Assembly: GCA_041659945.1 (NCBI GenBank)
Contig: JBAZXH010000001.1
Span: 627,262-691,261 of the forward strand
Length of the DNA stretch: 64,000 nt
Direction of reading: 5' to 3'
Source of the DNA: Candidatus Pacearchaeota archaeon
GTDB taxonomy: Archaea; Nanobdellota; Nanobdellia; Pacearchaeales; GW2011-AR1
Both the position numbers and the translations under genes were made by a program. Of the stretch, positions 922 through 29,581 are shown piece by piece (the first letter of the stretch is position 1; each line of letters begins with the position of its first letter). The notes under the pieces are model-generated. The model searched no databases. It saw only the letters and a list, made by a program, of their open reading frames with translations, and was not told the DNA's origin.

Positions 922-1554
922 ATGCCTAAAGTTACTAAAAAGAAAGGTGATTTAAAAAAACTGAAAAAAGTAGAGGTTAGTTTGTCTTCTAAGTCAAATA
1001 AATCAAGCAAAGTTGAAGTTGCTGAAATTAAACGGCCTAGAGAAGAGGAATTTGATGAAGAAGATAATTTAAATAATTTTATTGGTTTTTTTGATCCTAG
1101 ATTACTTAGTGTTGGTAGTGGTGTATTGAGAGGGCCGGTTTTGGATTCGGAAAATAGATCTTTGGAAGGAAGTGTTGGAGGTGTGCAAAATGCTCCTGAA
1201 GCAGCAAATCTGGAAAAGGAAAAACAAGCGAATGTTAATCCTTATGTTACTAATTCTGGAATTGATTATACCATACGGCTAGGTCAAGACTTTACAATGC
1301 AGAATGCAAGAAAAAGACGAAACGATGATATGGATGAAACTGTTTTGACAGCTCGTAGAAAAAGAGAAGAAAGGGCTTTTATTCAACCAGAGGAAAGAGC
1401 TTTGAATGTTGGAGATTTTAGAAGAGAAATGACTCAGCAGGGAGGAAGTATGGGTGCAGATGAATATTCTAATTATGTTGTTGGAGCGGATAAACTACAG
1501 TATGAAAGTGGTCTGCCCTTTGAGCAAAAGGAAGAAAAGAGAAAAAGATTTTGA
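922..1554 (+). CDS. hypothetical Lys/Glu/Arg-rich protein
   Basis: 210-aa ORF with ATG start and a highly charged low-complexity N-terminus (KKKGDLKKLKK). No motif recognised. Confidence 0.5.
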   Translation: MPKVTKKKGDLKKLKKVEVSLSSKSNKSSKVEVAEIKRPREEEFDEEDNLNNFIGFFDPRLLSVGSGVLRGPVLDSENRSLEGSVGGVQNAPEAANLEKEKQANVNPYVTNSGIDYTIRLGQDFTMQNARKRRNDDMDETVLTARRKREERAFIQPEERALNVGDFRREMTQQGGSMGADEYSNYVVGADKLQYESGLPFEQKEEKRKRF

Positions 1555-1578
1555 GTTTTAACGAAGTTTATTAGACTA

Positions 1579-1728
1579 ATTTTGAAATCATACCATAACT
1601 GTTTGTGCTACGCAAAACATCCCTAATTTAAAGCTGTTTAATATATGCTAGAATATTATTACCTAGCTAACTTTTAACCTATAGAAGTTAAATGAGCAGA
1701 GCGAATGATTGTTTATTTATTTTCAATA
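1579..1728 (+). repeat. intergenic repeat family 1, copy A (left arm of an inverted pair)
   Basis: Aligns by hand to the reverse complement of 5074-5207 and partly to rc(28985-29085). Starts 24 nt after the stop of the 922..1554 gene. Confidence 0.75.
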
Positions 1729-1780
1729 CAAAAACATAAATATTTAAACTTAATTTTTTATCTATATACTAGAGGTGTAA

Positions 1781-3673
1781 ATGTCTTATCAATATTTTTA
1801 CGAAGGAGCATATTCTGCATTGGAACCTAAATATGGTGATTTATTTGTTGGTTATAGGTTACCTGCTGGAAGTTTAGGTGCTACTACAAGTGTACAAACT
1901 GCAAATCAGATAAAAGAAGTTAATAATTTATTAAATCAGGGAATGAGAAATATTGAAGTTTCCATGATCAGACCTGATGTTTTGGATATGATTCCTAAAC
2001 AGCATTTAAGAGAAATAAACAGACTCTCTAAATTAACTGGAACTGAAGGAGGAATTTCTTTACATGCTCCGATTATTGATCCATCAGGTTTTACAGAACA
2101 GGGATGGGAAGAGACAAATAGAGAAGCTGTTGAAAGACAGTTTATTGATATGTTAGATAAAGCACATGCATTGAGTCCTAATGGTCCTATGCCCGTAACA
2201 ATTCATGCTTCATCTATTCCAGGAACTGAAACAATTCCATTCGAGGAAAATGGTAAAATGGGTGAAAAAACACAAAAAATGATTGCAGTTAATAGAGAAA
2301 CCGGTCAGCTAATTCCTTTGATTAGGGAAAAAAGATATTATCCTGATAGGCCGGAGGAAAGTTTTGGAAAAATTTATGAACCCGAACAAGAGTTAGAAAT
2401 TGCAAATAGAAGTCATTGGGATAATAAACTTTCACAATTATTATTTTATAAGGATAGGGGAGATGAAATTTTAGACAAAGCTGATAAGTTGGCCCAGGGA
2501 TATGTTAATGAAGCAAAAAAAACTCAACAAATTCTTAGTAGTAATATCGACCCAGAAACCAAACAGCCGTTGACTGATGAACAAAAAAGACAATATGAAG
2601 AACAAATAGTGCAGCTAAAACAGACAGCTCAACTTGCTCCACAGTCTCAGTTACAAAATGCAATGTTGTACTTTGAAAACACTCAGCTAAGTACGAGCAG
2701 TCTTTTTAATGAGGCATATAAACTTGCAGATGAGGAAGGTAGAAAAAGATTAAAAAAAGTTTCTGATGTTTTCAAAAAAGACTTTTCTCAGGCTGTTGAC
2801 AGTAGTGGTCAGCTTAGAGATCCGGTAGCTTTTTCCAATGCTCTTCAGGGGTTAATTCAGAATATGAAATCGGAAACAACTTCCTCTGACCCCAGAGTTC
2901 ATATACCTCAAGTTTACAAACCTGTTGAGGAATTTGTTACAGAAAAAGCATCTCAGACAATTGGAAATACTGCGTTTAAATCTTATAAAAATTATGGTCC
3001 AAATGCTCCGATAATTTCCATTGAAAATCCCCCCTATGGAAGTGCGGTATCAAGAGCTAAGGATGTTGCAAAACTAATTGAAGAATCAAAAAAAGTTTTT
3101 ATTGAAAGAGCTAGAAAAGAGGGAATGAGCCAGGGTGAAGCTCAGAAAGCTGCTGATAGTGTAATTGGTGCTACATGGGATACATCTCACATAGCTATGA
3201 TGAGAAAACAAGGATTTGGTTCTGAACAATTGATTAAGGAAGCTAAGACAATTGCTCCGTTTGTTAAGCATGTTCATCTAAATGATAATTTTGGAAGTAG
3301 TCATACTGATTTGCCTGTTGGAATGGGTAATGTTCCAATTAAAGAGATTATGCAAGAGTTTGATAAAGTAGGATTTAAAGGACGGCGAGTTTTTGAGGGT
3401 GGGAATTTCTTTCAGCATTTTCAACAATCACCTCATAGCTATATGTTAGAAGCTTTTGGTTCTCCAGTTTATTCTACAGCACCAGATATTGGAGGAATGT
3501 TATATTGGAATCAAGGAGTTTTAGGTGGAGGAAATTATTTTTCAGGTATGGGCACTATGCTTCCAGATCAAAATTTTCAGATGTATGGATCAGGATTTTC
3601 AGGAATGCCTACTGAACTTGGAGGGCAAATGCAGCAGAGAGGCTCTAGAATGAGTGGTACTCCGATGGCATAG
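1781..3673 (+). CDS. xylose-isomerase-like TIM-barrel protein with large central insert and Gly/Met/Gln-rich tail
   Basis: C-terminal half has WDTSH...VKHVHLNDNFGSSHTDLPVGMGNVPIKEI...FEGG, typical of the sugar-phosphate isomerase/AP endonuclease 2 TIM-barrel fold. N-terminal half has LHAP and TIHAS strand motifs. About 250 aa of charged helical sequence lies between them. The tail is GGMLYWNQGVLGGGNYFSGMG... Confidence 0.6.
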   Translation: MSYQYFYEGAYSALEPKYGDLFVGYRLPAGSLGATTSVQTANQIKEVNNLLNQGMRNIEVSMIRPDVLDMIPKQHLREINRLSKLTGTEGGISLHAPIIDPSGFTEQGWEETNREAVERQFIDMLDKAHALSPNGPMPVTIHASSIPGTETIPFEENGKMGEKTQKMIAVNRETGQLIPLIREKRYYPDRPEESFGKIYEPEQELEIANRSHWDNKLSQLLFYKDRGDEILDKADKLAQGYVNEAKKTQQILSSNIDPETKQPLTDEQKRQYEEQIVQLKQTAQLAPQSQLQNAMLYFENTQLSTSSLFNEAYKLADEEGRKRLKKVSDVFKKDFSQAVDSSGQLRDPVAFSNALQGLIQNMKSETTSSDPRVHIPQVYKPVEEFVTEKASQTIGNTAFKSYKNYGPNAPIISIENPPYGSAVSRAKDVAKLIEESKKVFIERARKEGMSQGEAQKAADSVIGATWDTSHIAMMRKQGFGSEQLIKEAKTIAPFVKHVHLNDNFGSSHTDLPVGMGNVPIKEIMQEFDKVGFKGRRVFEGGNFFQHFQQSPHSYMLEAFGSPVYSTAPDIGGMLYWNQGVLGGGNYFSGMGTMLPDQNFQMYGSGFSGMPTELGGQMQQRGSRMSGTPMA

Positions 3674-3775
3674 CGAAGGACACCTTAGGTGCTCGAGAAG
3701 GATACCTTCTCGGCAAGTTCACTTTTAACAAAGATGAACTTTTCCTACCGCACTACCTTCCCTTATCAAGGAAAA
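3672..3775 (+). repeat. post-stop structured element (family 2, long form), shares core with tRNA-Gly intron
   Basis: Begins within the TAG stop. AGCGAAGGA (3672-3680) matches 20000-20008. The 21-mer TTTCCTACCGCACTACCTTCC (3741-3761) matches 20017-20037 exactly. Two internal hairpins at 3694-3712 (8 bp) and 3715-3741 (7 bp). Confidence 0.6.
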
Positions 3776-3836
3776 TTAAAAAAGAAAGTTTTAAAAGTAA
3801 AATTTACTTGAATAAAGTAGCAAAAAAGAGGATTAA

Positions 3837-4214
3837 ATGAAAAAGAAAACAATAGGGTGGATTCAAATAATTGTGGGAATAATAATTCCTATAATTGCAA
3901 TAAGTATTATGCTTTTTTATATTCCCAAGGAAACTGGAATCAGTGTTTTTTCAGATAAAAATAAATTACTTAATCGTTTACCTATTGTGACTGATACTTC
4001 AATACCAGAAATTCAAGATAGAGTAATTCCAGGGTTTAATGGCCTATCAAATGATACAAAAATGATTCTTAGATATGAAGACTGGAATTTACAATCTAAC
4101 TTATCTAATTCAATTAATTTAGTCAAACTTATTTCTGCATCTACAATAATCTTAACTTTAATTTTATCAATTATATTAATATTACAAGGATTAGCAAATA
4201 TTGCAGATAAATAA
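3837..4214 (+). CDS. small membrane protein
   Basis: 125 aa with hydrophobic segments at both the N- and C-terminus (IGWIQIIVGIIIPIIAISIMLFY; IILTLILSIILILQG). Confidence 0.5.
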   Translation: MKKKTIGWIQIIVGIIIPIIAISIMLFYIPKETGISVFSDKNKLLNRLPIVTDTSIPEIQDRVIPGFNGLSNDTKMILRYEDWNLQSNLSNSINLVKLISASTIILTLILSIILILQGLANIADK

Positions 4215-4215
4215 A

Positions 4216-5064
4216 ATGGCAAGCAAAAAAGGCAAGAAATCTAAAAAAGTAAATGTTGAAGAAAAAACTAAAAAGAATTTTCCAACATTAGATCTGAGAA
4301 GTGATCGGGAGATCGCAATGGATTTTGCTGTTAAAGTTTATAGGAAATTTGATAAATTAGTTAAGGCTATAGTTTTATTTGGATCATCTGCAAAAAATAC
4401 TGCTGTTTCGGGTTCTGATATTGATTTAGTTATTGTGGTTGATGATGCTTCAATTAATTGGGATCCTGAATTAATTACTTGGTATAGAGAAGAACTTGGA
4501 AAGATTGTTGAAGTTAATCCCTATAGAAAAGAGTTACATGTTAATACAATAAAAACAACAACATTTTGGAGTGATTTGCTAAAGGGTGATCCAATTATTT
4601 TGAATGTTTTGCGCTATGGAGAGGCTCTTATTGATGCGGCAGGATTTTTTAATCCAATAAAAGCTTTGCTTATTCAGGGTAGAATCAAGCCAACTCCCGA
4701 ATCAATTTATACTGCTTTGCAAAGAGCTCCAGAGCATTTAATGAGAAGTAAGATTGCTAAATTAAGTTCTATCGAAGGAGTTTATTGGTCAATACTTGAT
4801 TCAGCTCAGGCAGCTCTGATGTCTGTTAAACAAACTCCTGCTTCACCAGAACATATACCTCAAATGCTAAAAGAGATTTTTGTTGATGCTGGAGAGTTAA
4901 AAATGGATTATGTGTTGATGGTCAGAGATATTTATTTAGTACATAAAAGAATATTTCACGGAGAGATGAATAATATTAGTGGAAAAGAAATTGATGATTG
5001 GCAAGTAAAAGCTGAAGATTTTATTAATACAATGGTTGCTATAGTAAGGAAGAATATTAGTTAG
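4216..5064 (+). CDS. nucleotidyltransferase (pol-beta/MNT type) fused to a helical HEPN-like region
   Basis: LFGSSAKNTAVSGSDIDLVIVVDD is a GS...DxD NTase motif. Start moved to the ATG at 4216 (TAAAATG junction with the upstream gene). Paralogous to the core of 17008..18813. Confidence 0.7.
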   Translation: MASKKGKKSKKVNVEEKTKKNFPTLDLRSDREIAMDFAVKVYRKFDKLVKAIVLFGSSAKNTAVSGSDIDLVIVVDDASINWDPELITWYREELGKIVEVNPYRKELHVNTIKTTTFWSDLLKGDPIILNVLRYGEALIDAAGFFNPIKALLIQGRIKPTPESIYTALQRAPEHLMRSKIAKLSSIEGVYWSILDSAQAALMSVKQTPASPEHIPQMLKEIFVDAGELKMDYVLMVRDIYLVHKRIFHGEMNNISGKEIDDWQVKAEDFINTMVAIVRKNIS

Positions 5065-5073
5065 ATTTATTAA

Positions 5074-5207
5074 TTCTGAAAATATAAAGATAATCATTCG
5101 CATCTGCTCATTTAACTTCTGTAGGTTAAAATTAATAAGTAAATTAAACAGCTTTAAGCTAGGCAAGTTTTGCGACAGCACAAACAATTATTGTGTGATT
5201 TCAAAAT
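5074..5207 (-). repeat. intergenic repeat family 1, copy B (right arm of the inverted pair)
   Basis: The reverse complement aligns to 1579-1728. The outer end lies 4 nt from the ppsA stop codon. Confidence 0.75.
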
Positions 5208-5211
5208 AGAA

Positions 5212-7947
5212 TTAAAAAATATCCAGTATCTCATCAATATCATCTTCGTTTATTTCTTTTAACACCTCAACATCATCATCTTCACTTTTTTTGGATGTTG
5301 GTTTTTCTTCTGAATTAGAGATTTCCTCTTCTACAATATCACTTGAGTTATCTGAATAATCATCTGCTACATAGTTTGGCACTTCTTTTTTGTTATTTGC
5401 ATTATCTGGTTTTTCAGAGTTTAGTTCGTTTAGTAATTTTCTGTCTTTTAGTTCTTCATCTGAAATTTGAGGTAGTTCGGGTATTTCATCCAGTACACTT
5501 TCTTCTTCATTTTTATTTTCATTCTCATTCAGAGGTTCTTGTATACTTTCAAATTCTACATATTCTTTTTTTGTTTTATCAAATTTTGAATAATCTTTTT
5601 CTTTTGGTTTATTATTTTCATTTTTCTCTTTTTTAAAATCATTTTTTGGTTTTTGGAAATTTGTTTTTTCAACTTGGTTCTGATTTTGAGGATGAGAACT
5701 TTCTAGTTGAGAAACTAGAACAGAAACATCGTGTGCCGCATCGGCATTTACAGAAATACTCTTTATTCCGTTTTTAATTAGAAATTCAACCATTTGTTTA
5801 TTGCTTCCTGCTTGACCACAGATACTTGATTCTACATTATGTTCTTCACATGTTCTTAAAACTCTTTTTATTGCATTGGTTACTGCAGGGTGTAGTTCGT
5901 TGTAAATATACTGAACTTGTTCATTTCCACGATCAATTGCAAGAACATACTGTGTTAGATCATTTGTTCCGAAGCTAATAAAGTCAAGACCAACATCAAG
6001 TAAATTTTTAATTATCAAACAAGCAGCAGGAGTTTCAACCATAATTCCTCTTTTTATGTTGCTTAGTTTATCCATGCCTAATTCTTTTTCTAGTTTTTTG
6101 GTTTCAATTACTTCTTCTGGAGAAATAACTTGGGGCATCATTATACCAAAAGTTTTATGTGGGAACTTTTCAGCACAGTGTTTTATTGCATTTAATTCTG
6201 CTTTGAAAAGACTAGGATTTTTTAGAGAAAATCTTATTCCGTGCATGCCTAACATTGGATTAAGTTCTACTTGTTTTGGTGCACCATCTAGATGGGAAAA
6301 TTCATCTGATCTTATATCTGAAGTTCTTACCCATACTTCTTTAAAATGTTCAGCAATCTGTTCAATTCCTGTTTGAATTAATTTTGAGTATTCACTTTCT
6401 TTTCCTTCTTTTTGGAATTTTATTGGGTGTTTGCCAGATGAGGCAATTATTCCCTCTAGTCTTAGAAGTCCAACAGCTTCACAGCCGCTTTCAGCAGCCC
6501 GGTTTGCAAAGGCAGGTATGTCTACTATTACTTTTATTTTTGTTTTTGTTGGAACTATCTTTTTGATTTCAACTTTTTTAGATTCGGTAAAACCTTCATA
6601 AACTCTTCCATTGAAACCATCAACAGTTATAACTTGACCGTCTTTTAGTGTTTTGGTAGCTTTTTCTGTTCCCACAACTGCTGGAATGCCCATTTCACGG
6701 CTTACAATTGCGGCATGAGACGTAATTCCTCCTTCATCTGTTACAATTGCTGCAGCTCTTTGCATTGTAACAACCATATCAGGATTTGTCATTTCTGTAA
6801 CTAAAATGTCTCCCTTCTGAACTTTATTTAACTCATTTAGATTCATTATGATTTTTACTTTTCCAGAAGCTAGTCCGGGTGAGGCTCCTAAACCTGAAAG
6901 AATTATATCTCCTTTGACCTCAGTTTTTGATTCTTGGGCTTTGGTTGTTATTGGACGAGTCTGTACAATGTAAATATCTGCATCTTCAACCGAGAATTCA
7001 ATATCTTGGGGTTTGTCGTAATGTTCCTCTAGTTTCATTGCATAGTCAGCTAGACGTTTTATTTCTGAATCTTTTAGAACTTGTTCTTTACTTTTATTTG
7101 GTGTTAATTTAATTTGTTCGGTGTCTCCTTGCGAATTTCTAACTAGTGCAACTTTTTTTTCAGCAATTCTTTTATCTAGAATTTCTAAATCTCTTGAAAC
7201 TTCATAGTTATCTGGTTTTATCATTCCAGATACTATTCCCTCTCCTAAACCAAAAACAGCTTCAACCATTACACTTGTATCATTTTTTACCGGGTTTCTT
7301 GAGAACATAACACCTGACTTTTCTGAATCAATCATTTTTTGAACAACCACTGCCAGTGAGAACTTTTCTTTACTAAATCCACGTTTTTTTCTGTAGTATA
7401 TTGCTCGTGCTGTGAAAAGACTAGCAAATACTTTTTTAACAGCTTCTATAAGTTTTCTATTTCCTTTGATATTTAGATAGCTTTCTTGTTGGCCTGCAAA
7501 ACTTGAATCTGACAGGTCTTCTGTTGTTGCACTTGATCTTACTGCAACAAATATTGGTTCGCTACCATGTTTTAATATTCCTAGAGCATATCTTCCAGCC
7601 TGTTCAAGTGTTTTTTTATCAACACTTAGATCTTCATAGGCCTCAAGAATTTCTGCTGCAAGATCATCTGGTAGTTCTGCATTAACTATTGTTTGACGTA
7701 TTTCTTTAGCTTTACTTTCTAGTTCTTCTGTTTCATCAACATTAATACTGTCAAGAAGTTGGAATATTTTGTTTTTTATTCCAGATTTTTCAATAAAATG
7801 ATAGTAGGCTTTTGTTGTAACCACAAATGCTGGTGGGACTGGAAATTTTGAATTAAAAATCTCTGCTAAATTTGCTCCCTTTCCTCCAGCTATCGGACCA
7901 GAATTCTTGTTTAGTTCTGATAGCCAGCGGATAAATTCATTTGCCAC
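5212..7947 (-). CDS. ppsA: phosphoenolpyruvate synthase (pyruvate, water dikinase) with low-complexity C-terminal extension
   Basis: N-terminal GGKGANLAEI ATP-grasp region, central TSHAAIVSREMGIPAVVG phospho-His swivel domain, and C-terminal PEP-utilising TIM barrel (GTNDLTQY). The last ~155 aa are Lys/Glu/Asp/Asn-rich low complexity. Confidence 0.92.
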   Translation of the reverse strand: MANEFIRWLSELNKNSGPIAGGKGANLAEIFNSKFPVPPAFVVTTKAYYHFIEKSGIKNKIFQLLDSINVDETEELESKAKEIRQTIVNAELPDDLAAEILEAYEDLSVDKKTLEQAGRYALGILKHGSEPIFVAVRSSATTEDLSDSSFAGQQESYLNIKGNRKLIEAVKKVFASLFTARAIYYRKKRGFSKEKFSLAVVVQKMIDSEKSGVMFSRNPVKNDTSVMVEAVFGLGEGIVSGMIKPDNYEVSRDLEILDKRIAEKKVALVRNSQGDTEQIKLTPNKSKEQVLKDSEIKRLADYAMKLEEHYDKPQDIEFSVEDADIYIVQTRPITTKAQESKTEVKGDIILSGLGASPGLASGKVKIIMNLNELNKVQKGDILVTEMTNPDMVVTMQRAAAIVTDEGGITSHAAIVSREMGIPAVVGTEKATKTLKDGQVITVDGFNGRVYEGFTESKKVEIKKIVPTKTKIKVIVDIPAFANRAAESGCEAVGLLRLEGIIASSGKHPIKFQKEGKESEYSKLIQTGIEQIAEHFKEVWVRTSDIRSDEFSHLDGAPKQVELNPMLGMHGIRFSLKNPSLFKAELNAIKHCAEKFPHKTFGIMMPQVISPEEVIETKKLEKELGMDKLSNIKRGIMVETPAACLIIKNLLDVGLDFISFGTNDLTQYVLAIDRGNEQVQYIYNELHPAVTNAIKRVLRTCEEHNVESSICGQAGSNKQMVEFLIKNGIKSISVNADAAHDVSVLVSQLESSHPQNQNQVEKTNFQKPKNDFKKEKNENNKPKEKDYSKFDKTKKEYVEFESIQEPLNENENKNEEESVLDEIPELPQISDEELKDRKLLNELNSEKPDNANNKKEVPNYVADDYSDNSSDIVEEEISNSEEKPTSKKSEDDDVEVLKEINEDDIDEILDIF

Positions 7948-8561: not shown

Positions 8562-8903
8562 ATGTGTATGATAATTAGTAAGGAAGATATATTGAGAATA
8601 AACAAAGGATTTGGAGGAACATTAAGAAGTGACTCTAGTTTAGACTATGCTATAGACCTGCAGGAAAGTAAAAAACTTGGTCCGTATAAGAAGTTAGCCT
8701 ATCTTTTGAGGGCTATACTGGTAGATCATCCATTTTCAGATGCAAATAAAAGAACAGCTATGTATGTTTCATTGGAGTTTGCAAGTGAAAATAAAAAGCA
8801 AGTAAATAATGATATATTGTTACACCAGATTATTTCAATTGCAAAACAAAACATAATTGACATAAGAAATATAGAATGGAGAATGAAAAATGCAATCAGG
8901 TAA
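8562..8903 (+). CDS. doc: Doc (death-on-curing) family toxin, Fic fold
   Basis: HPFSDANKRTA matches the Doc-type Fic motif HxFx(D/N)(A/G)NKR. The size is typical at 113 aa. Confidence 0.8.
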   Translation: MCMIISKEDILRINKGFGGTLRSDSSLDYAIDLQESKKLGPYKKLAYLLRAILVDHPFSDANKRTAMYVSLEFASENKKQVNNDILLHQIISIAKQNIIDIRNIEWRMKNAIR

Positions 8904-9105
8904 AGAAGATAAAATATTGAAAAAATATAAAGAACTATTTGAAGCTCTTGAAAATTATGATAAAACAAGAGAGCTGCCATTTCAAAGAAAAAGAATAGAT
9001 ATCACTCTTTCAGTGAGAACTATAGACAAACTTAAGAGTATGAAACATAAAACAGGTAAGCCCGTATCCCAAATTATTGAAGAGTGTTTGAATAAGAATA
9101 ATTAA
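8890..9105 (+). CDS. ribbon-helix-helix (CopG-like) putative antitoxin
   Basis: 71 aa. RIDITLSVRTIDKLKSMKHKTGKPVSQIIEECL has a strand-helix-helix pattern. Overlaps the doc stop by 14 nt. Confidence 0.55.
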   Translation: MQSGKEDKILKKYKELFEALENYDKTRELPFQRKRIDITLSVRTIDKLKSMKHKTGKPVSQIIEECLNKNN

Positions 9106-9671: not shown

Positions 9672-10103
9672 ATGAAACAAAAAACAAAAATAAATACAAA
9701 TGGAACCAAAAGGCTAGCAATTCTGCTCGGGCTTGCAGGAGTAGATGGAGCAGTAGCTCTAGCCGCGGTTGCAGGACTTTTTACAATTGGAAATGCTTTG
9801 TTAATTGCAGTTTTATTTATGGCAGGGCCCGGAGCAATTACTCTTGCTGCTTTAATTGATGGTTCACTTAAGGAGAGAATGCTGAGTGCTCTTTTAGCAG
9901 GAGTTATTGCTACTTGTATAGTTATGCTTTCTGCAGGTTTTGGGCCTAAAATACTTGGGTTTGTTAATCTAAATGTACTAAGAGTTATTGGAGGAATTTC
10001 AATAGGGTTAGTTGCTTTGCTTGTTGCAGGTGTAAAAATTCCAAATAATTTACCATTAGGAGTTATGGCTACTGGTTTAGTTCTTAGTTTTATATTGAGG
10101 TAA
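9672..10103 (+). CDS. Gly/Ala-rich polytopic membrane protein
   Basis: 143 aa with about 4 hydrophobic segments. The opposite-strand ORF 9632..10138 is its shadow. SD-like AGGAGGG at 10106-10112 couples it to the next gene. Confidence 0.6.
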   Translation: MKQKTKINTNGTKRLAILLGLAGVDGAVALAAVAGLFTIGNALLIAVLFMAGPGAITLAALIDGSLKERMLSALLAGVIATCIVMLSAGFGPKILGFVNLNVLRVIGGISIGLVALLVAGVKIPNNLPLGVMATGLVLSFILR

Positions 10104-11239: not shown

Positions 11240-11614
11240 ATGAAATCAGAATCAGTAAGACATAGATTAAATGTTAGGGCCACTCCCTTTCATTTAAAAA
11301 AATTTGTAGCATACAGAAGTGAACGTGAACATGTGTATGTTAGCTATGGCTTTATGACTCAAGATGGTTTGGAAGTTCCTTTTCATGAAACTGAGAATCA
11401 GTCAGTATATCAAATTAGAGTTTATGATAGAAATGGAGTATCAAGTCCGGGTGTAAAATCAGGTCCATATGTTACATTCTCAAGTACTGCTTTTCAAGCA
11501 TTAAGTAATGAGCATTTTGTTTTAGACTTGTTAAGAGAAATATCTAAAACAAAACCCCCTTTAGAAGAGTTAGAAGGTTTAATTGAAGAATCACTTGAAG
11601 GTATGGAAGATTAG
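11240..11614 (+). CDS. hypothetical protein (operon I)
   Basis: 124-aa ORF with GAGGT 5 nt upstream of the ATG. Confidence 0.5.
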   Translation: MKSESVRHRLNVRATPFHLKKFVAYRSEREHVYVSYGFMTQDGLEVPFHETENQSVYQIRVYDRNGVSSPGVKSGPYVTFSSTAFQALSNEHFVLDLLREISKTKPPLEELEGLIEESLEGMED

Positions 11615-11666
11615 TTAAGAAATATTAAAGTGAATATAAAGATTAAATAATGTTTGATAAAATAAA

Positions 11667-12152
11667 ATGGCAAAAAAGTATACTAGAGAAGAAATTGAAG
11701 GTTCAAGAAATTGGATGAGAAAAAATTGTTTTCCAAATGTTCAAGTTGATTTAGCTGAGGCTGGGCTTAGATTTGATTATTTTGTAATGCCTCAGAATCT
11801 TTGTCCTCAACTGCCTGATTTTGTTTATAGATGTACTGGAAGTCCTGAAGATGGATATGTTTTTGGAATTTCTGAAACTGTTCCTGAAATATTTAGACCA
11901 TTTGCAGTTGCACACGAGTTTATGGAATTTGGTCAAATTGGTTTGGACGTTAATGGTAGATGCTTGCAGGCTTTAGAAAAAGAAATTGAATTAGTTCCAG
12001 GTGATATTAGACCTGAATATATTAAAATGAGAAGAAGATTTTTTGATAATCTTGTTAAGTGGACTAGAGCTCAACCTGATTATGATCAATTAGATATTGT
12101 TGAATTTGAAGGAAGTTTGGCAAGATTAAATGAGCTTGTACGTGGGGAATAA
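11667..12152 (+). CDS. hypothetical protein with HExxE-like motif (operon I)
   Basis: 161 aa. AVAHEFMEF could be a degenerate metallopeptidase-type motif. This is unproven. Confidence 0.5.
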   Translation: MAKKYTREEIEGSRNWMRKNCFPNVQVDLAEAGLRFDYFVMPQNLCPQLPDFVYRCTGSPEDGYVFGISETVPEIFRPFAVAHEFMEFGQIGLDVNGRCLQALEKEIELVPGDIRPEYIKMRRRFFDNLVKWTRAQPDYDQLDIVEFEGSLARLNELVRGE

Positions 12153-19962: not shown

Positions 19963-20105
19963 GCGCTGGTAGTATAGTGGTTAGTATTCCTCGTTGCCAA
20001 GCGAAGGAAACCAAGGTTTCCTACCGCACTACCTTCCTTAAATGGAGGATAATTGCAGTAAAGTGCAAAGACGAGGAGACCCGGGTCCGACTCCCGGCTG
20101 GCGCA
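19963..20105 (+). tRNA. tRNA-Gly (GCC) with 71-nt intron at the canonical 37/38 position
   Basis: 5' exon is GCGCTGG-TA-GTAT-AGTGGTTA-GTAT-T-CCTCG-TTGCCA. 3' exon is A-CGAGG-AGAC-CCGGG-TCCGACT-CCCGG-CTGGCGC-A. Intron is 20000-20070. TTGC pairs with GCAA (20065-20068), flanked by 3-nt bulges CAA and AGA, as in a BHB motif. Confidence 0.8.
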
Positions 20106-27247: not shown

Positions 27248-28870
27248 ATGACCGATTCAAAACCAGTTTACATATCACCTGAAAATGTTCAGCGAATGCT
27301 TGGACAGGATGCTCAGAGAAATAATATTCTAGCTGCACGAATAGTTGCAGATACTGTGAAAACTACACTTGGGCCTAAAGGCATGGATAAGATGCTTGTT
27401 GATGCTAGCGGAAATGTTGTGATTACAAATGATGGCGTTACAATTCTTGAGGAAATGGAAATTGAACATCCGGCAGCAAAGATGATGGTGGAAATTGCAA
27501 AAACTCAGGAAAATGAAGTTGGTGATGGTACAACAACTGCAGTTATGATTGCAGGAAAATTGCTTGAAAATGCTGAAAAATTACTTGATAAGAAAATTCA
27601 TCCGACCGTTATAACTAAAGGTTATCAGTTGGCTGCTGAAAAGTCAATTGATTTTTTAAATCAAATTGGAACTAGAATCACAACTGATGATAATTTAACT
27701 TTGAGACAAATTGCAATAACATCAATGACCGGAAAGAGTGTTGAAAATGTTAAGGAAAAATTTGCAGATATTATTGTTGACTCTGTTAAACTTATTGAGG
27801 ATATGGGACAGATTGACTTGGATAATATTAAGATAGAAAAAATTAAGGGAGATGGAACAAAAGATACTGAGCTAGTTTCAGGAATTGTTTTGGATGCTGA
27901 AAAACTTAATATTGATATGCCAAAAACTGTTGAAAATGCGAGAATTGCTTTGCTTGATTTTGCACTTGAACTTAGAAATCCGGAAATTGAAACAAAGATA
28001 AGTATTTCCACACCTGAACAGTTACGGGGTTTTGTTGATTCTGAGGAAAAAATGCTAAAAGAAATGATTGAGGTTGTTAAAAAATCCGGAGCAAATGTTG
28101 TTTTTTGTCAAAAGGGAATTGATGATGTTGCACAGTATTATTTAACTAAAGCTAGAATTTATGCTTGTAGAAGAGTTGCCAGAAGTGATATGGAAAAATT
28201 ATCAATGGCTACTGGAGGAAAAATAGTTAGTAATTTAAGTGAGTTAAATAATGAAGACCTGGGAAGTTCTAAGAGTGTTGAAGAAATAAAAAAAGGGGGA
28301 AATGCTATGACTTATGTAAGAGGATGTTTGAATCCTAAAGCAATAACAATAATTGTGCGTGGAGGAAGTGATCATGTGATTGATGAAACAGAAAGAGCTA
28401 TTAGAGACGGTTTAGGTGATGTGAGTGCGGTTTTGAAAGATGGGATGGTTGTTGCTGGTGGGGGGGCTGTTGAAATTGAGCTGGCTAAACGACTAAGAGA
28501 ATTTTCACAAAGTTTGAATGGAAGGGAACAACTTGCTGTGGAAGAATTTGCCAGTGCACTTGAGTGTATTCCAATTACACTTGCAGAAAACGCAGGATTA
28601 GATCCAATTGATATGTTAACTGATTTGAAAGCTCAGCATGATAAGGGAAATAAAAATGTTGGTTTGAATTTATTTACCGGAAAGGTTGAAGATACTTTTG
28701 TTGCAGGTATCATTGAACCGCTGAGAATTAAAACCCAGGCAATTAGCTCATCATCTGAAGTTGCAACAATGATTTTGAGAATCGATGATGTTATTGCTAG
28801 CAATGGCAAGAAAAATGCAAGAGAGAATAAGTTTGGGGGAATGCAAAATCCTATGATGGGGTATGATTAA
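27248..28870 (+). CDS. ths: thermosome subunit (group II chaperonin)
   Basis: [43 protein letters not shown] and a C-terminal GGMQNPMMG tail are classic thermosome/CCT motifs. Confidence 0.95.
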
Positions 28871-28920: not shown

Positions 28921-28984
28921 TTTTAAAGTATCACCCTCCTTTTAATAGTTTGAAAATCTGTAAACAATTGTTCATATATATCCA

Positions 28985-29085
28985 CATCACTTCTGTAAGT
29001 TTAATTTAAACATTTAATCTTGACTTAACCACTTTAAGCTTTGAATTTTGTGTTAACATAAATTCCTATGGTATGCTTTCAAATA
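28985..29085 (-). repeat. intergenic repeat family 1, copy C (more diverged)
   Basis: TATGGTATGCTTTCAAAT (29068-29084) vs rc(1579-1597) TATGGTATGATTTCAAAAT. ACTTCTGTAAGTTTAA and CTTTAAGCT blocks are shared with copy B. It ends ~5 nt from the stop of 29090..29581. Confidence 0.55.
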
Positions 29086-29089
29086 TATT

Positions 29090-29581
29090 TTAACATCTAG
29101 ACTCACTTTTTATCTTGCTTATGATGTTTGTGGTTGAGCTGTTTGTTTCTGCTGGAAGAATTGCAATTTTGCCATTATAACTTTCAACTATTTTTCTTTC
29201 ATCCTGATTAATTGTATCTAAATTATAATCTCCGCCTTTGGCATAGACTTCTGGTTTTAATTCTTCTAGGTATTTGGTTGGATGGGCTTCTGAGAAGATG
29301 ATAACTTTGTCAACACATTCTAGAGCTGCAATTAGCTCAGCTCTTTCACTTTCAGAAACTATTGGACGTGAAGGACCTTTAATTTCTCTGATTGAAGAAT
29401 CACTGTTAATTCCAACTATAAGCAAATCTCCGCAGGCCTTTGCTTTTTGCAGATATCTAATGTGCCCTACGTGGAGTATGTCAAAACATCCGTTTGTCCA
29501 AACTACTTTTTTATCTGGATTAGAATTCTTGAAATTTTCAATATCTTTTTTTAGCTGTTCTAGATCTTTTATTTTATTCAT
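29090..29581 (-). CDS. cytidylyltransferase-family nucleotidyltransferase (RfaE domain II / heptose-1-P adenylyltransferase-like)
   Basis: VVWTNGCFDILHVGHIRYLQKAK (HxGH motif) and IVGINSDSSIR. Confidence 0.8.
   Translation of the reverse strand: MNKIKDLEQLKKDIENFKNSNPDKKVVWTNGCFDILHVGHIRYLQKAKACGDLLIVGINSDSSIREIKGPSRPIVSESERAELIAALECVDKVIIFSEAHPTKYLEELKPEVYAKGGDYNLDTINQDERKIVESYNGKIAILPAETNSSTTNIISKIKSESRC

Follow-up and report, generated by a model that had tools for sequence, protein, structure and literature searches.

Inverted repeat arms around three genes are old copies of a short, dispersed intergenic repeat in a Pacearchaeota genome

A short non-coding repeat is present in old copies, at least three in number, between genes of a Pacearchaeota (DPANN) archaeon, and two of them form the inverted arms that enclose three genes. 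In the window, i.e., the whole 64-kb stretch of DNA that was analyzed, the left arm (c1) is at positions 1579..1728 on the plus strand (~150 nt) and the right arm (c2) is at 5074..5207 on the minus strand (~131-134 nt). The third copy (c3), which is solo, diverged and full-length, is at 28947..29086 on the minus strand. The genes between the arms belong to an ancient conserved neighborhood, thus the arms represent an ordinary dispersed repeat and not the borders of a mobile or invertible cassette. The inverted pairing of c1 and c2 is best read as incidental, and defines no mobile, composite or invertible unit.

In a MAFFT alignment the left arm and the reverse-complemented right arm run collinearly from end to end, with identity in 112 of 140 aligned columns (80%) and a longest exact match of 18 nt. 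This confirms the inverted repeats that a preliminary description had read by eye. The hand counts given there are reproduced: about 8 substitutions and 1 indel in the outer block (8 and 1 by MAFFT), 1 substitution and 1 indel in the inner block, and an unrelated center of 29 vs 12 nt between the blocks that appears as a central indel. Within the window, blastn pairs 1579-1725 with 5207-5077 at an E value of 4e-26, far beyond chance. A repeat search of the window finds the outer arm pairs 1579-1609/5177-5207 (90%) and 1611-1645/5140-5174 (86%) and the inner pairs 1672-1700/5103-5131 (97%) and 1701-1725/5077-5101 (84%), all collinear. Between the arms are three ORFs, 1781-3673, 3837-4214 and 4216-5064, all on the plus strand as first described.

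The gene to the left of c1 (922..1554, +) encodes a 210-aa protein with the C-terminal tail ...GLPFEQKEEKRKRF, and is an ortholog of a gene of ~170-230 aa, "LPFE", that in most relatives directly precedes the TIM-barrel gene. c1 sits in the 226-nt spacer between these two genes, 24 nt past the stop codon of the 210-aa gene, and ends 52 nt before the ATG of the TIM-barrel gene. The latter (1781..3673, +) encodes a 630-aa xylose-isomerase-like TIM-barrel protein (PF01261) that is conserved in Pacearchaeota; of 8000 scored candidates, 778 are homologs at E ≤ 0.001, the closest of them 59% identical. Outside c1 and 31 nt before this ATG is a candidate archaeal TATA-like box, TATTTAAAC (1742..1750, +), which from its sequence and position is likely that of the TIM-barrel gene; the motif is similar to ATTTAAAAAC, found upstream of NTase genes in relatives. 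Scans for bacterial-type promoters and terminators are uninformative, the host being an archaeon. The second enclosed gene, a 125-aa predicted membrane ORF (3837..4214, +), is an ORFan that has no database match except itself and is not present in relatives; it is the only lineage-specific gene among those enclosed. The third (4216..5064, +) encodes a 282-aa nucleotidyltransferase (NTase, PF01909). On the right is ppsA (PEP synthase, 911 aa; 5212..7947, −), convergent with the cluster both here and in relatives. The 147-nt spacer between NTase and ppsA consists almost wholly of c2, which starts 4 nt past the ppsA stop codon.

Repeats of ~140 nt in inverted orientation around 3.4 kb have the geometry of a composite or inverted-repeat-flanked mobile cassette, or of crossover sites that would invert a phase-variable three-gene segment, and both possibilities had been raised when the arms were first described. 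However, the order LPFE protein (~200 aa), TIM barrel, NTase and convergent ppsA recurs across Pacearchaeota and is ancestral. In 66 of 70 loci the TIM-barrel gene is followed by the NTase gene, ppsA is found in 16 loci, and joint conservation of the TIM-NTase pair, of LPFE upstream of it and of ppsA convergent with it is at odds with a composite transposon. Ancestral order and orientation thus hold for the TIM-barrel and NTase genes between the arms and for the gene on each flank. The preliminary description had held that its proposal would be undermined if relatives without the repeats had these genes at the corresponding site; such an arrangement is found for two of the genes, the 125-aa ORF being absent from the relatives. 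A Pfam scan of 29 ORFs, inside the segment and nearby, reveals no recombinase or transposase domain, in accord with the initial reading of the region, and no base differs across the region between the assemblies ENA ERZ27249449 and Logan SRR18595301, in which the segment has the same orientation. In addition, the arms are only 80% identical, share no exact match above 18 nt, and have an unpaired third copy. A cassette or an invertible segment is thereby already largely refuted, and we find it scarcely credible.

In the closest relatives the spacer between the LPFE and TIM-barrel genes is 27-36 nt vs 226 nt here, and subtraction of the 150 nt of c1 from the latter leaves a spacer of normal length. 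These relatives are 55-59% identical at the protein level, a distance at which an empty site at c1 would not align base for base. The NTase-ppsA interval is variable among relatives; a gene of ~190 aa that they carry there has been lost here. Possible remnants of this gene in the arms were sought with tblastn, and no similarity was detected.

The third copy was found by nhmmer when c1 and c2 were the sole input to the model (E 1.9e-4, model positions 7-154). It is 65% identical to c1 and 63% identical to c2, and its position elsewhere in the genome shows that the arms belong to a dispersed family and do not constitute a pair. This corrects the earlier picture of c1 and c2 as a unique pair. c3 is located in the convergent spacer between a thermosome gene (27248-28870, +) and a cytidylyltransferase-like gene (29090-29581, −), and starts ~3-7 nt past the stop codon of the latter. 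It is 24 kb from c1 and c2 and unpaired, so that three collinear full-length copies are present in the 80 kb examined (~10% of the genome; the contig is 832 kb). The unit boundaries are identical in c1, c2 and c3, and the substitutions among them are scattered over the whole length, as drift would give. All three are strictly intergenic and adjoin stop codons, starting 3-24 nt past the stop of a gene on the same strand.

These features bear on a further possibility, that the arms arose as a local inverted duplication during a rearrangement, e.g., the event that removed the ~190-aa gene between NTase and ppsA, with no mobile element involved. c1 and c2 are 3.4 kb apart and more similar to each other (80%) than to c3 (63-65%), and the interval in question is one that varies and has lost a gene, all of which would suit such an event. 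However, c3 is full-length, has the same two ends, and lies in an unrelated spacer 24 kb away, which calls for the dispersal of a discrete unit; with boundaries the same in three of three copies, we hold a local duplication to be very unlikely.

Probably, then, the arms belong to a small and old repeat family whose non-coding members, 130-150 nt long, lie between genes and are non-autonomous, dispersed, MITE-like and decayed. Each copy would have inserted, or been copied, into the spacer that follows a housekeeping gene at its 3′ end, a position at which a compact genome tolerates insertions, and the copies would then have drifted. By chance c1 and c2 would have come to flank an ancient conserved gene cluster in opposite orientation, and if so their inverted geometry is incidental. 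Dispersal was presumably transposition-like rather than by another duplication process, and the copies may now be without function. Two independent insertions of a 3′-flank element, one of the original suggestions, fit the solo copy 24 kb off, the position of the copies in spacers at gene 3′ ends and the 27-36-nt spacers of relatives. These same observations fit another of the suggestions, that of a MITE pair, which is nonetheless weakened by the lack of terminal inverted repeats (TIRs) and of a demonstrable target-site duplication (TSD).

MITEs are defined here as small (50-800 bp), non-coding elements with no transposase (PMC11602168). The three copies are 131-150 nt in length, with stop codons in every frame and no transposase within, and are dispersed in the genome in both orientations, in all of which they resemble prokaryotic MITEs. 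Their ends, ATTTTGAAATCA...ATTTTCA, are less typical. TIRs of at least 10 bp are absent from c1-c3, where a MITE should have at least 10-15 bp, and the two ends have in common only TTTGAAA / TTTTCA(A), 6-7 nt. When the first 35 nt are aligned locally with the last 35 nt in reverse complement, the best scores are 7, 9 and 7 for the three copies, with p = 0.43, 0.06 and 0.74 in comparison with shuffled ends. For each copy, the dinucleotide TA can be positioned at or close to both ends, but it is uninformative because the DNA is 32% G+C, and with element ends that are not base-exact no clear TSD is readable. The missing TIRs of ≥10 bp, the ambiguity of any TSD and the lack of a partner transposase in the 29 Pfam-scanned ORFs were counted against the MITE-like reading. 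No parent IS was identified, and the copies are strongly diverged (63-80% identical), unlike recently active MITE families.

The repeat shares features with two other classes of elements. Like the palindrome-associated elements derived from IS200/IS605 (PATEs), it has no TIR or TSD and carries a subterminal hairpin near the 5′ end. Unlike PATEs, which have hairpins at both ends and a conserved 5′ target tetra- or pentanucleotide, it has no conserved 3′ hairpin, its 5′ flanks differ (ACTA, TTCT, ATAT) with no conserved 4-5-nt target, and no TnpA/TnpB is found in the Pfam-scanned ORFs. Bacterial REP/BIME repeats are likewise short, intergenic, hairpin-bearing and located at gene 3′ ends. However, the present repeat measures 130-150 nt, where a REP-type unit would be a GC-rich palindrome of ~35 nt, there are three copies in 80 kb, and no RAYT-type transposase was found.

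The subterminal hairpin, TGTTTGTGC-TAC-GCAAAACA (1600..1619, + in c1), is the only secondary-structure element kept in c1, c2 and c3 according to folds, RNAalifold and reading of the alignment, and displays one compensatory C-G to U-A change in c3. Together with copy starts 3-24 nt past stop codons, it leaves room for a functional 3′-end module: rather than selfish DNA, the repeat may be a lineage-specific terminator, a 3′-UTR element or a family of small RNA genes. The T-run ATTTTGAAA at the start of the copies and their T-rich 3′ end are consistent with such a role, as are hairpin-bearing modules in six long spacers of the closest relative (locus L003), one of them marginally similar to c1 and c2. 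However, folds of whole single copies are no better than those of shuffled sequences (sense strand z −0.8 to −1.7), RNAalifold with two or three sequences gives no supporting covariation, the covariation term being unfavorable, and c3 has lost a second hairpin. The orientation bias is without weight, since c2 and c3 each lie between convergent genes and would follow a gene on either strand. The element is also missing from most genes in the window. A functional module of this kind is therefore considered unlikely. The narrower proposal, that the repeat is a Pacearchaeota-specific 3′-end module (terminator, 3′-UTR or small RNA) built around the subterminal hairpin and distant kin of the L003 modular repeats, is in our judgment distinctly doubtful.

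Known structured RNA families were considered separately and rejected. Rfam 15 at gathering thresholds detects three tRNAs only in the whole window, and permissive Rfam scans of c1-c3 reach at best 15-21 bits vs gathering thresholds of 42-88, so that no match approaches a gathering score; folds and covariation do not support such a family either. The idea that relatives share a conserved structured RNA 3′ of the TIM-barrel gene was also tried, and does not hold generally (median z −0.5, 83 loci).

Other Pacearchaeota loci have their own, unrelated families of ~150-nt intergenic repeats. Locus L031 displays an inverted pair with termini AGTATCTCC/GGAGATACT around the ~200-aa gene, a true TIR-bearing MITE pair, so that MITEs of equal size are clear in sibling loci. 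Direct repeat pairs are found at L039 and L057. At L003, modular repeats that include a hairpin occupy six of six long spacers, in a mosaic that resembles BIMEs. One L003 module is collinear with c1 and c2 in MAFFT, with a score that none of 300 shuffles reach; this is uncorrected for ~18 tests and marginal. No link between the repeat family and L003 is found by nhmmer, which gives E 43 with the c1+c2 model and nothing at E ≤ 5 with the three-copy model, and this also counts against a shared functional module.

Searches of larger collections did not add copies. An 18-nt core gives 16 single hits among GTDB representative genomes, all in unrelated bacteria. This is close to the chance expectation, and the matches stop at 18-21 nt. 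A 22-nt core has 0 matches in JGI metagenomes, although the DNA collections scanned apparently do not include the source genome. Matches of three arm blocks in IMG/VR are absent or non-extending, and blastn of the arms against PLSDB plasmids and INPHARED phages finds nothing.

High densities of MITEs have been reported for some DPANN genomes in a published census (PMC11602168), and the repeat described here is one more short dispersed intergenic family in a DPANN genome, which carries little weight alone. Were it a 3′-end module after all, it would stand for a class of intergenic regulatory repeats that has not been described before in DPANN archaea. A by-product of the analysis is a very stable Pacearchaeota neighborhood of LPFE, TIM-barrel and nucleotidyltransferase genes, often with convergent ppsA. 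The locus also shows that genes enclosed by a conspicuous pair of inverted repeats do not necessarily form a unit that moves or switches. Repeats of ~150 nt recur in intergenic regions across the clade as different, unrelated families, and are open to a systematic survey.

The left arm (c1, 1579-1728, plus strand) and the right arm (c2, 5074-5207, minus strand) form an inverted repeat, which repeat search, MAFFT and blastn all place where the preliminary description had it. The repeat search resolves four collinear arm pairs, 1579-1725 vs. 5077-5207, with a complementarity of 84-97%, and blastn gives an E value of 4e-26 inside the window, whose G+C content is 32%. This composition and a tRNA intron of 73 nt (see below) fit an archaeal origin. 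A MAFFT alignment of c1 with the reverse complement of c2 reproduces the earlier hand counts, i.e., 8 substitutions and 1 indel in the outer block and 1 substitution and 1 indel in the inner block; 29 vs. 12 nt of unrelated sequence separate the two blocks, as had been counted. The arms enclose the three plus strand open reading frames originally listed: a TIM-barrel gene (1781-3673), a 125-aa ORF (3837-4214) and an NTase gene (4216-5064).

An invertible segment had been one of the readings offered for this arrangement. Identity between c1 and c2 is 112/140 aligned columns (80%), and the longest exact run common to both is only 18 nt; thus homologous inversion between them is unlikely. The Logan assembly of SRR18595301 is base-for-base identical to the window over the 9.6 kb common to both, in the same orientation, and the 630-aa TIM-barrel protein is encoded on the 832,568-bp ENA contig ERZ27249449 k141_293002. 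The reported absence of a recombinase or transposase holds for the 29 ORFs scanned, in which no such domain was detected. Relatives of the arm were not found in plasmid, phage or IMG/VR collections.

The arms had been taken as the borders of a cassette, but the TIM barrel-NTase order and its flanks are conserved in relatives. For the TIM-barrel protein, 778 of the 8000 candidates scored are homologs at E ≤ 0.001; most of these belong to Pacearchaeota and other DPANN archaea, and the best of them is only 59% identical. The gene order in the nearest relatives is TGT, ~200-aa protein, TIM barrel, NTase, (at least one gene) and convergent ppsA. Among the 70 loci with enough downstream sequence, a co-oriented NTase ortholog follows the TIM-barrel gene in 66, and 16 have a convergent ppsA 1.7-5.4 kb downstream of it. 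The gene upstream of the TIM barrel usually ends in an LPFE...K-rich tail, as does that of the 210-aa protein in the window (922-1554). L003, L005 and L107, the closest three relatives with the ~200-aa gene upstream, have 27-36 nt of spacer before the TIM-barrel gene vs. 226 nt in the window, of which 150 nt are c1. The 125-aa ORF, with no homologs among 5.8 billion protein clusters, is the sole lineage-specific gene of the enclosed set. The arms therefore occupy spacers of a conserved chromosomal neighbourhood and are not the borders of imported cargo; the supposed "cassette" reflects ancestral synteny.

Several features of this neighbourhood were observed in addition. A very stable Pacearchaeota trio (window 922-5064; loci L003, L005 and L026-L111) comprises a protein of ~170-230 aa whose C terminus carries an LPFE...K/R tail, followed by a split xylose-isomerase-like TIM-barrel protein (~600 aa) and an NTase (~280 aa). 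The convergent ppsA that often follows has a long acidic C-terminal tail ending in ...LDIF. Just past ppsA, at 8562-9105 of the window, a 113-aa ORF of the Fic/DOC family is overlapped by a small 71-aa ORF whose ribbon-helix-helix (CopG-like) match is weak and below threshold; the two may be a toxin-antitoxin-like pair. Precomputed Pfam hits place an intein, with a homing-endonuclease domain of the LAGLIDADG type, in the MCM helicase gene that lies upstream of the window on its contig (L001, 1-2131).

Nor do the arms form an exclusive pair. A profile made from c1 and c2 alone detects a third full-length copy, c3 (28947-29086, minus strand), with an E value of 1.9e-4 and a match to model positions 7-154. 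Its ends, (T)ATTTGAAA ... ATTTTCAAA, are shared with the arms, and its identity is 65% to c1 and 63% to c2. It is found solitary in the convergent spacer between a thermosome gene and a cytidylyltransferase-like gene. A three-copy profile revealed no further copies in 80 kb, i.e., the window and 8 kb on each side. We read c1, c2 and c3 as decayed copies belonging to one non-autonomous dispersed repeat. They would have entered spacers at the 3′ ends of genes, places where a compact genome tolerates extra DNA, and the greater similarity of c1 and c2 suggests that one was copied locally from the other. Just beyond c1, the candidate TATTTAAAC (1742-1750) is, judged from its sequence, likely the TATA-like box of the TIM-barrel gene.

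The main rival explanation is a functional 3′-end RNA or terminator module. The copies adjoin stop codons and a hairpin is conserved: the 5′ subterminal hairpin (1600-1619 in c1) is the only element retained in all copies, and it shows a single compensatory change, C-G to U-A, in c3. However, positive statistical support for such a module is absent. Whole-copy folds of c1, c2 and c3 are no better than shuffles, the RNAalifold covariation term is unfavourable for both two- and three-copy alignments, and none of the copies reached the threshold of any Rfam family, whether the whole window was searched or each copy was scanned permissively.

A separate folded stretch is found behind the TIM-barrel gene. 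Window 3672-3762 (plus strand) starts at the AG of the TAG stop codon, exceeds the adjacent sequence in G+C content and forms a junction of three hairpins on folding (MFE -31.9 kcal/mol, z -3.1, equalled by 0/200 shuffles). Both of its ends, AGCGAAGGA at the 5′ end and TTTCCTACCGCACTACCTTCC (21/21 nt), are shared with the 73-nt intron of a tRNA-Gly(GCC) gene 16 kb away (19963-20105, plus strand); neither sequence occurs a third time in the window, and the number expected by chance is 0. The stretch 3672-3762 is not bordered by tRNA exons, and the element is absent from IMG/VR and from the 121 loci left once copies of this genome region are set aside. It has the look of a tRNA-intron-like RNA element that was copied into the 3′ flank of an mRNA, or of a copy made in the opposite direction.

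Of 89 sequences compared with themselves, i.e., 88 related loci and the window, 24 contain one repeat pair or more. An inverted pair of 169 nt in L031 (128-295 and 1095-1263, 86% identical, with matching termini AGTATCTCC/GGAGATACT) brackets a ~200-aa gene that adjoins the TIM-barrel gene. Direct pairs of ~150 nt are present in L039 (3429-3571 and 5858-5998), each directly upstream of a different gene, and in L057 (4937-5089 and 10224-10377, 98% identical). The pairs of these three other Pacearchaeota loci (~150-170 nt) are intergenic and lie beside the same TIM-barrel gene as in the window. In the closest relative, L003 (GCA_041643095.1), modular mosaic repeats are found in 6/6 long spacers and in both orientations (2480-2654, 3638-3842, 4921-5184, 7153-7364, 9768-10047 and 11457-11745), an organisation like that of BIMEs. 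Each has the hairpin AAATTTTTC...GAAAAATTT, with the pattern AAATTT(T/C)TC-loop-GA(A/G)AAATTT, plus other common blocks. These families are unrelated in sequence to that of the window, with the possible exception of one L003 spacer, whose marginal collinear similarity to the window repeat has a score that 0/300 shuffles reach, uncorrected for ~18 tests, and is not significant by nhmmer.

According to a published census (PMC11602168), MITEs are dense in some DPANN genomes; its definition of a MITE asks for TIRs no shorter than 10-15 bp together with a TSD of 2-10 bp. The terminal inverted repeats of the three window copies are not significant (p = 0.43, 0.06 and 0.74), and a TA duplication is indistinguishable from background; it is on the TIRs that strict membership fails. 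The window repeat is a short dispersed MITE-like intergenic repeat.
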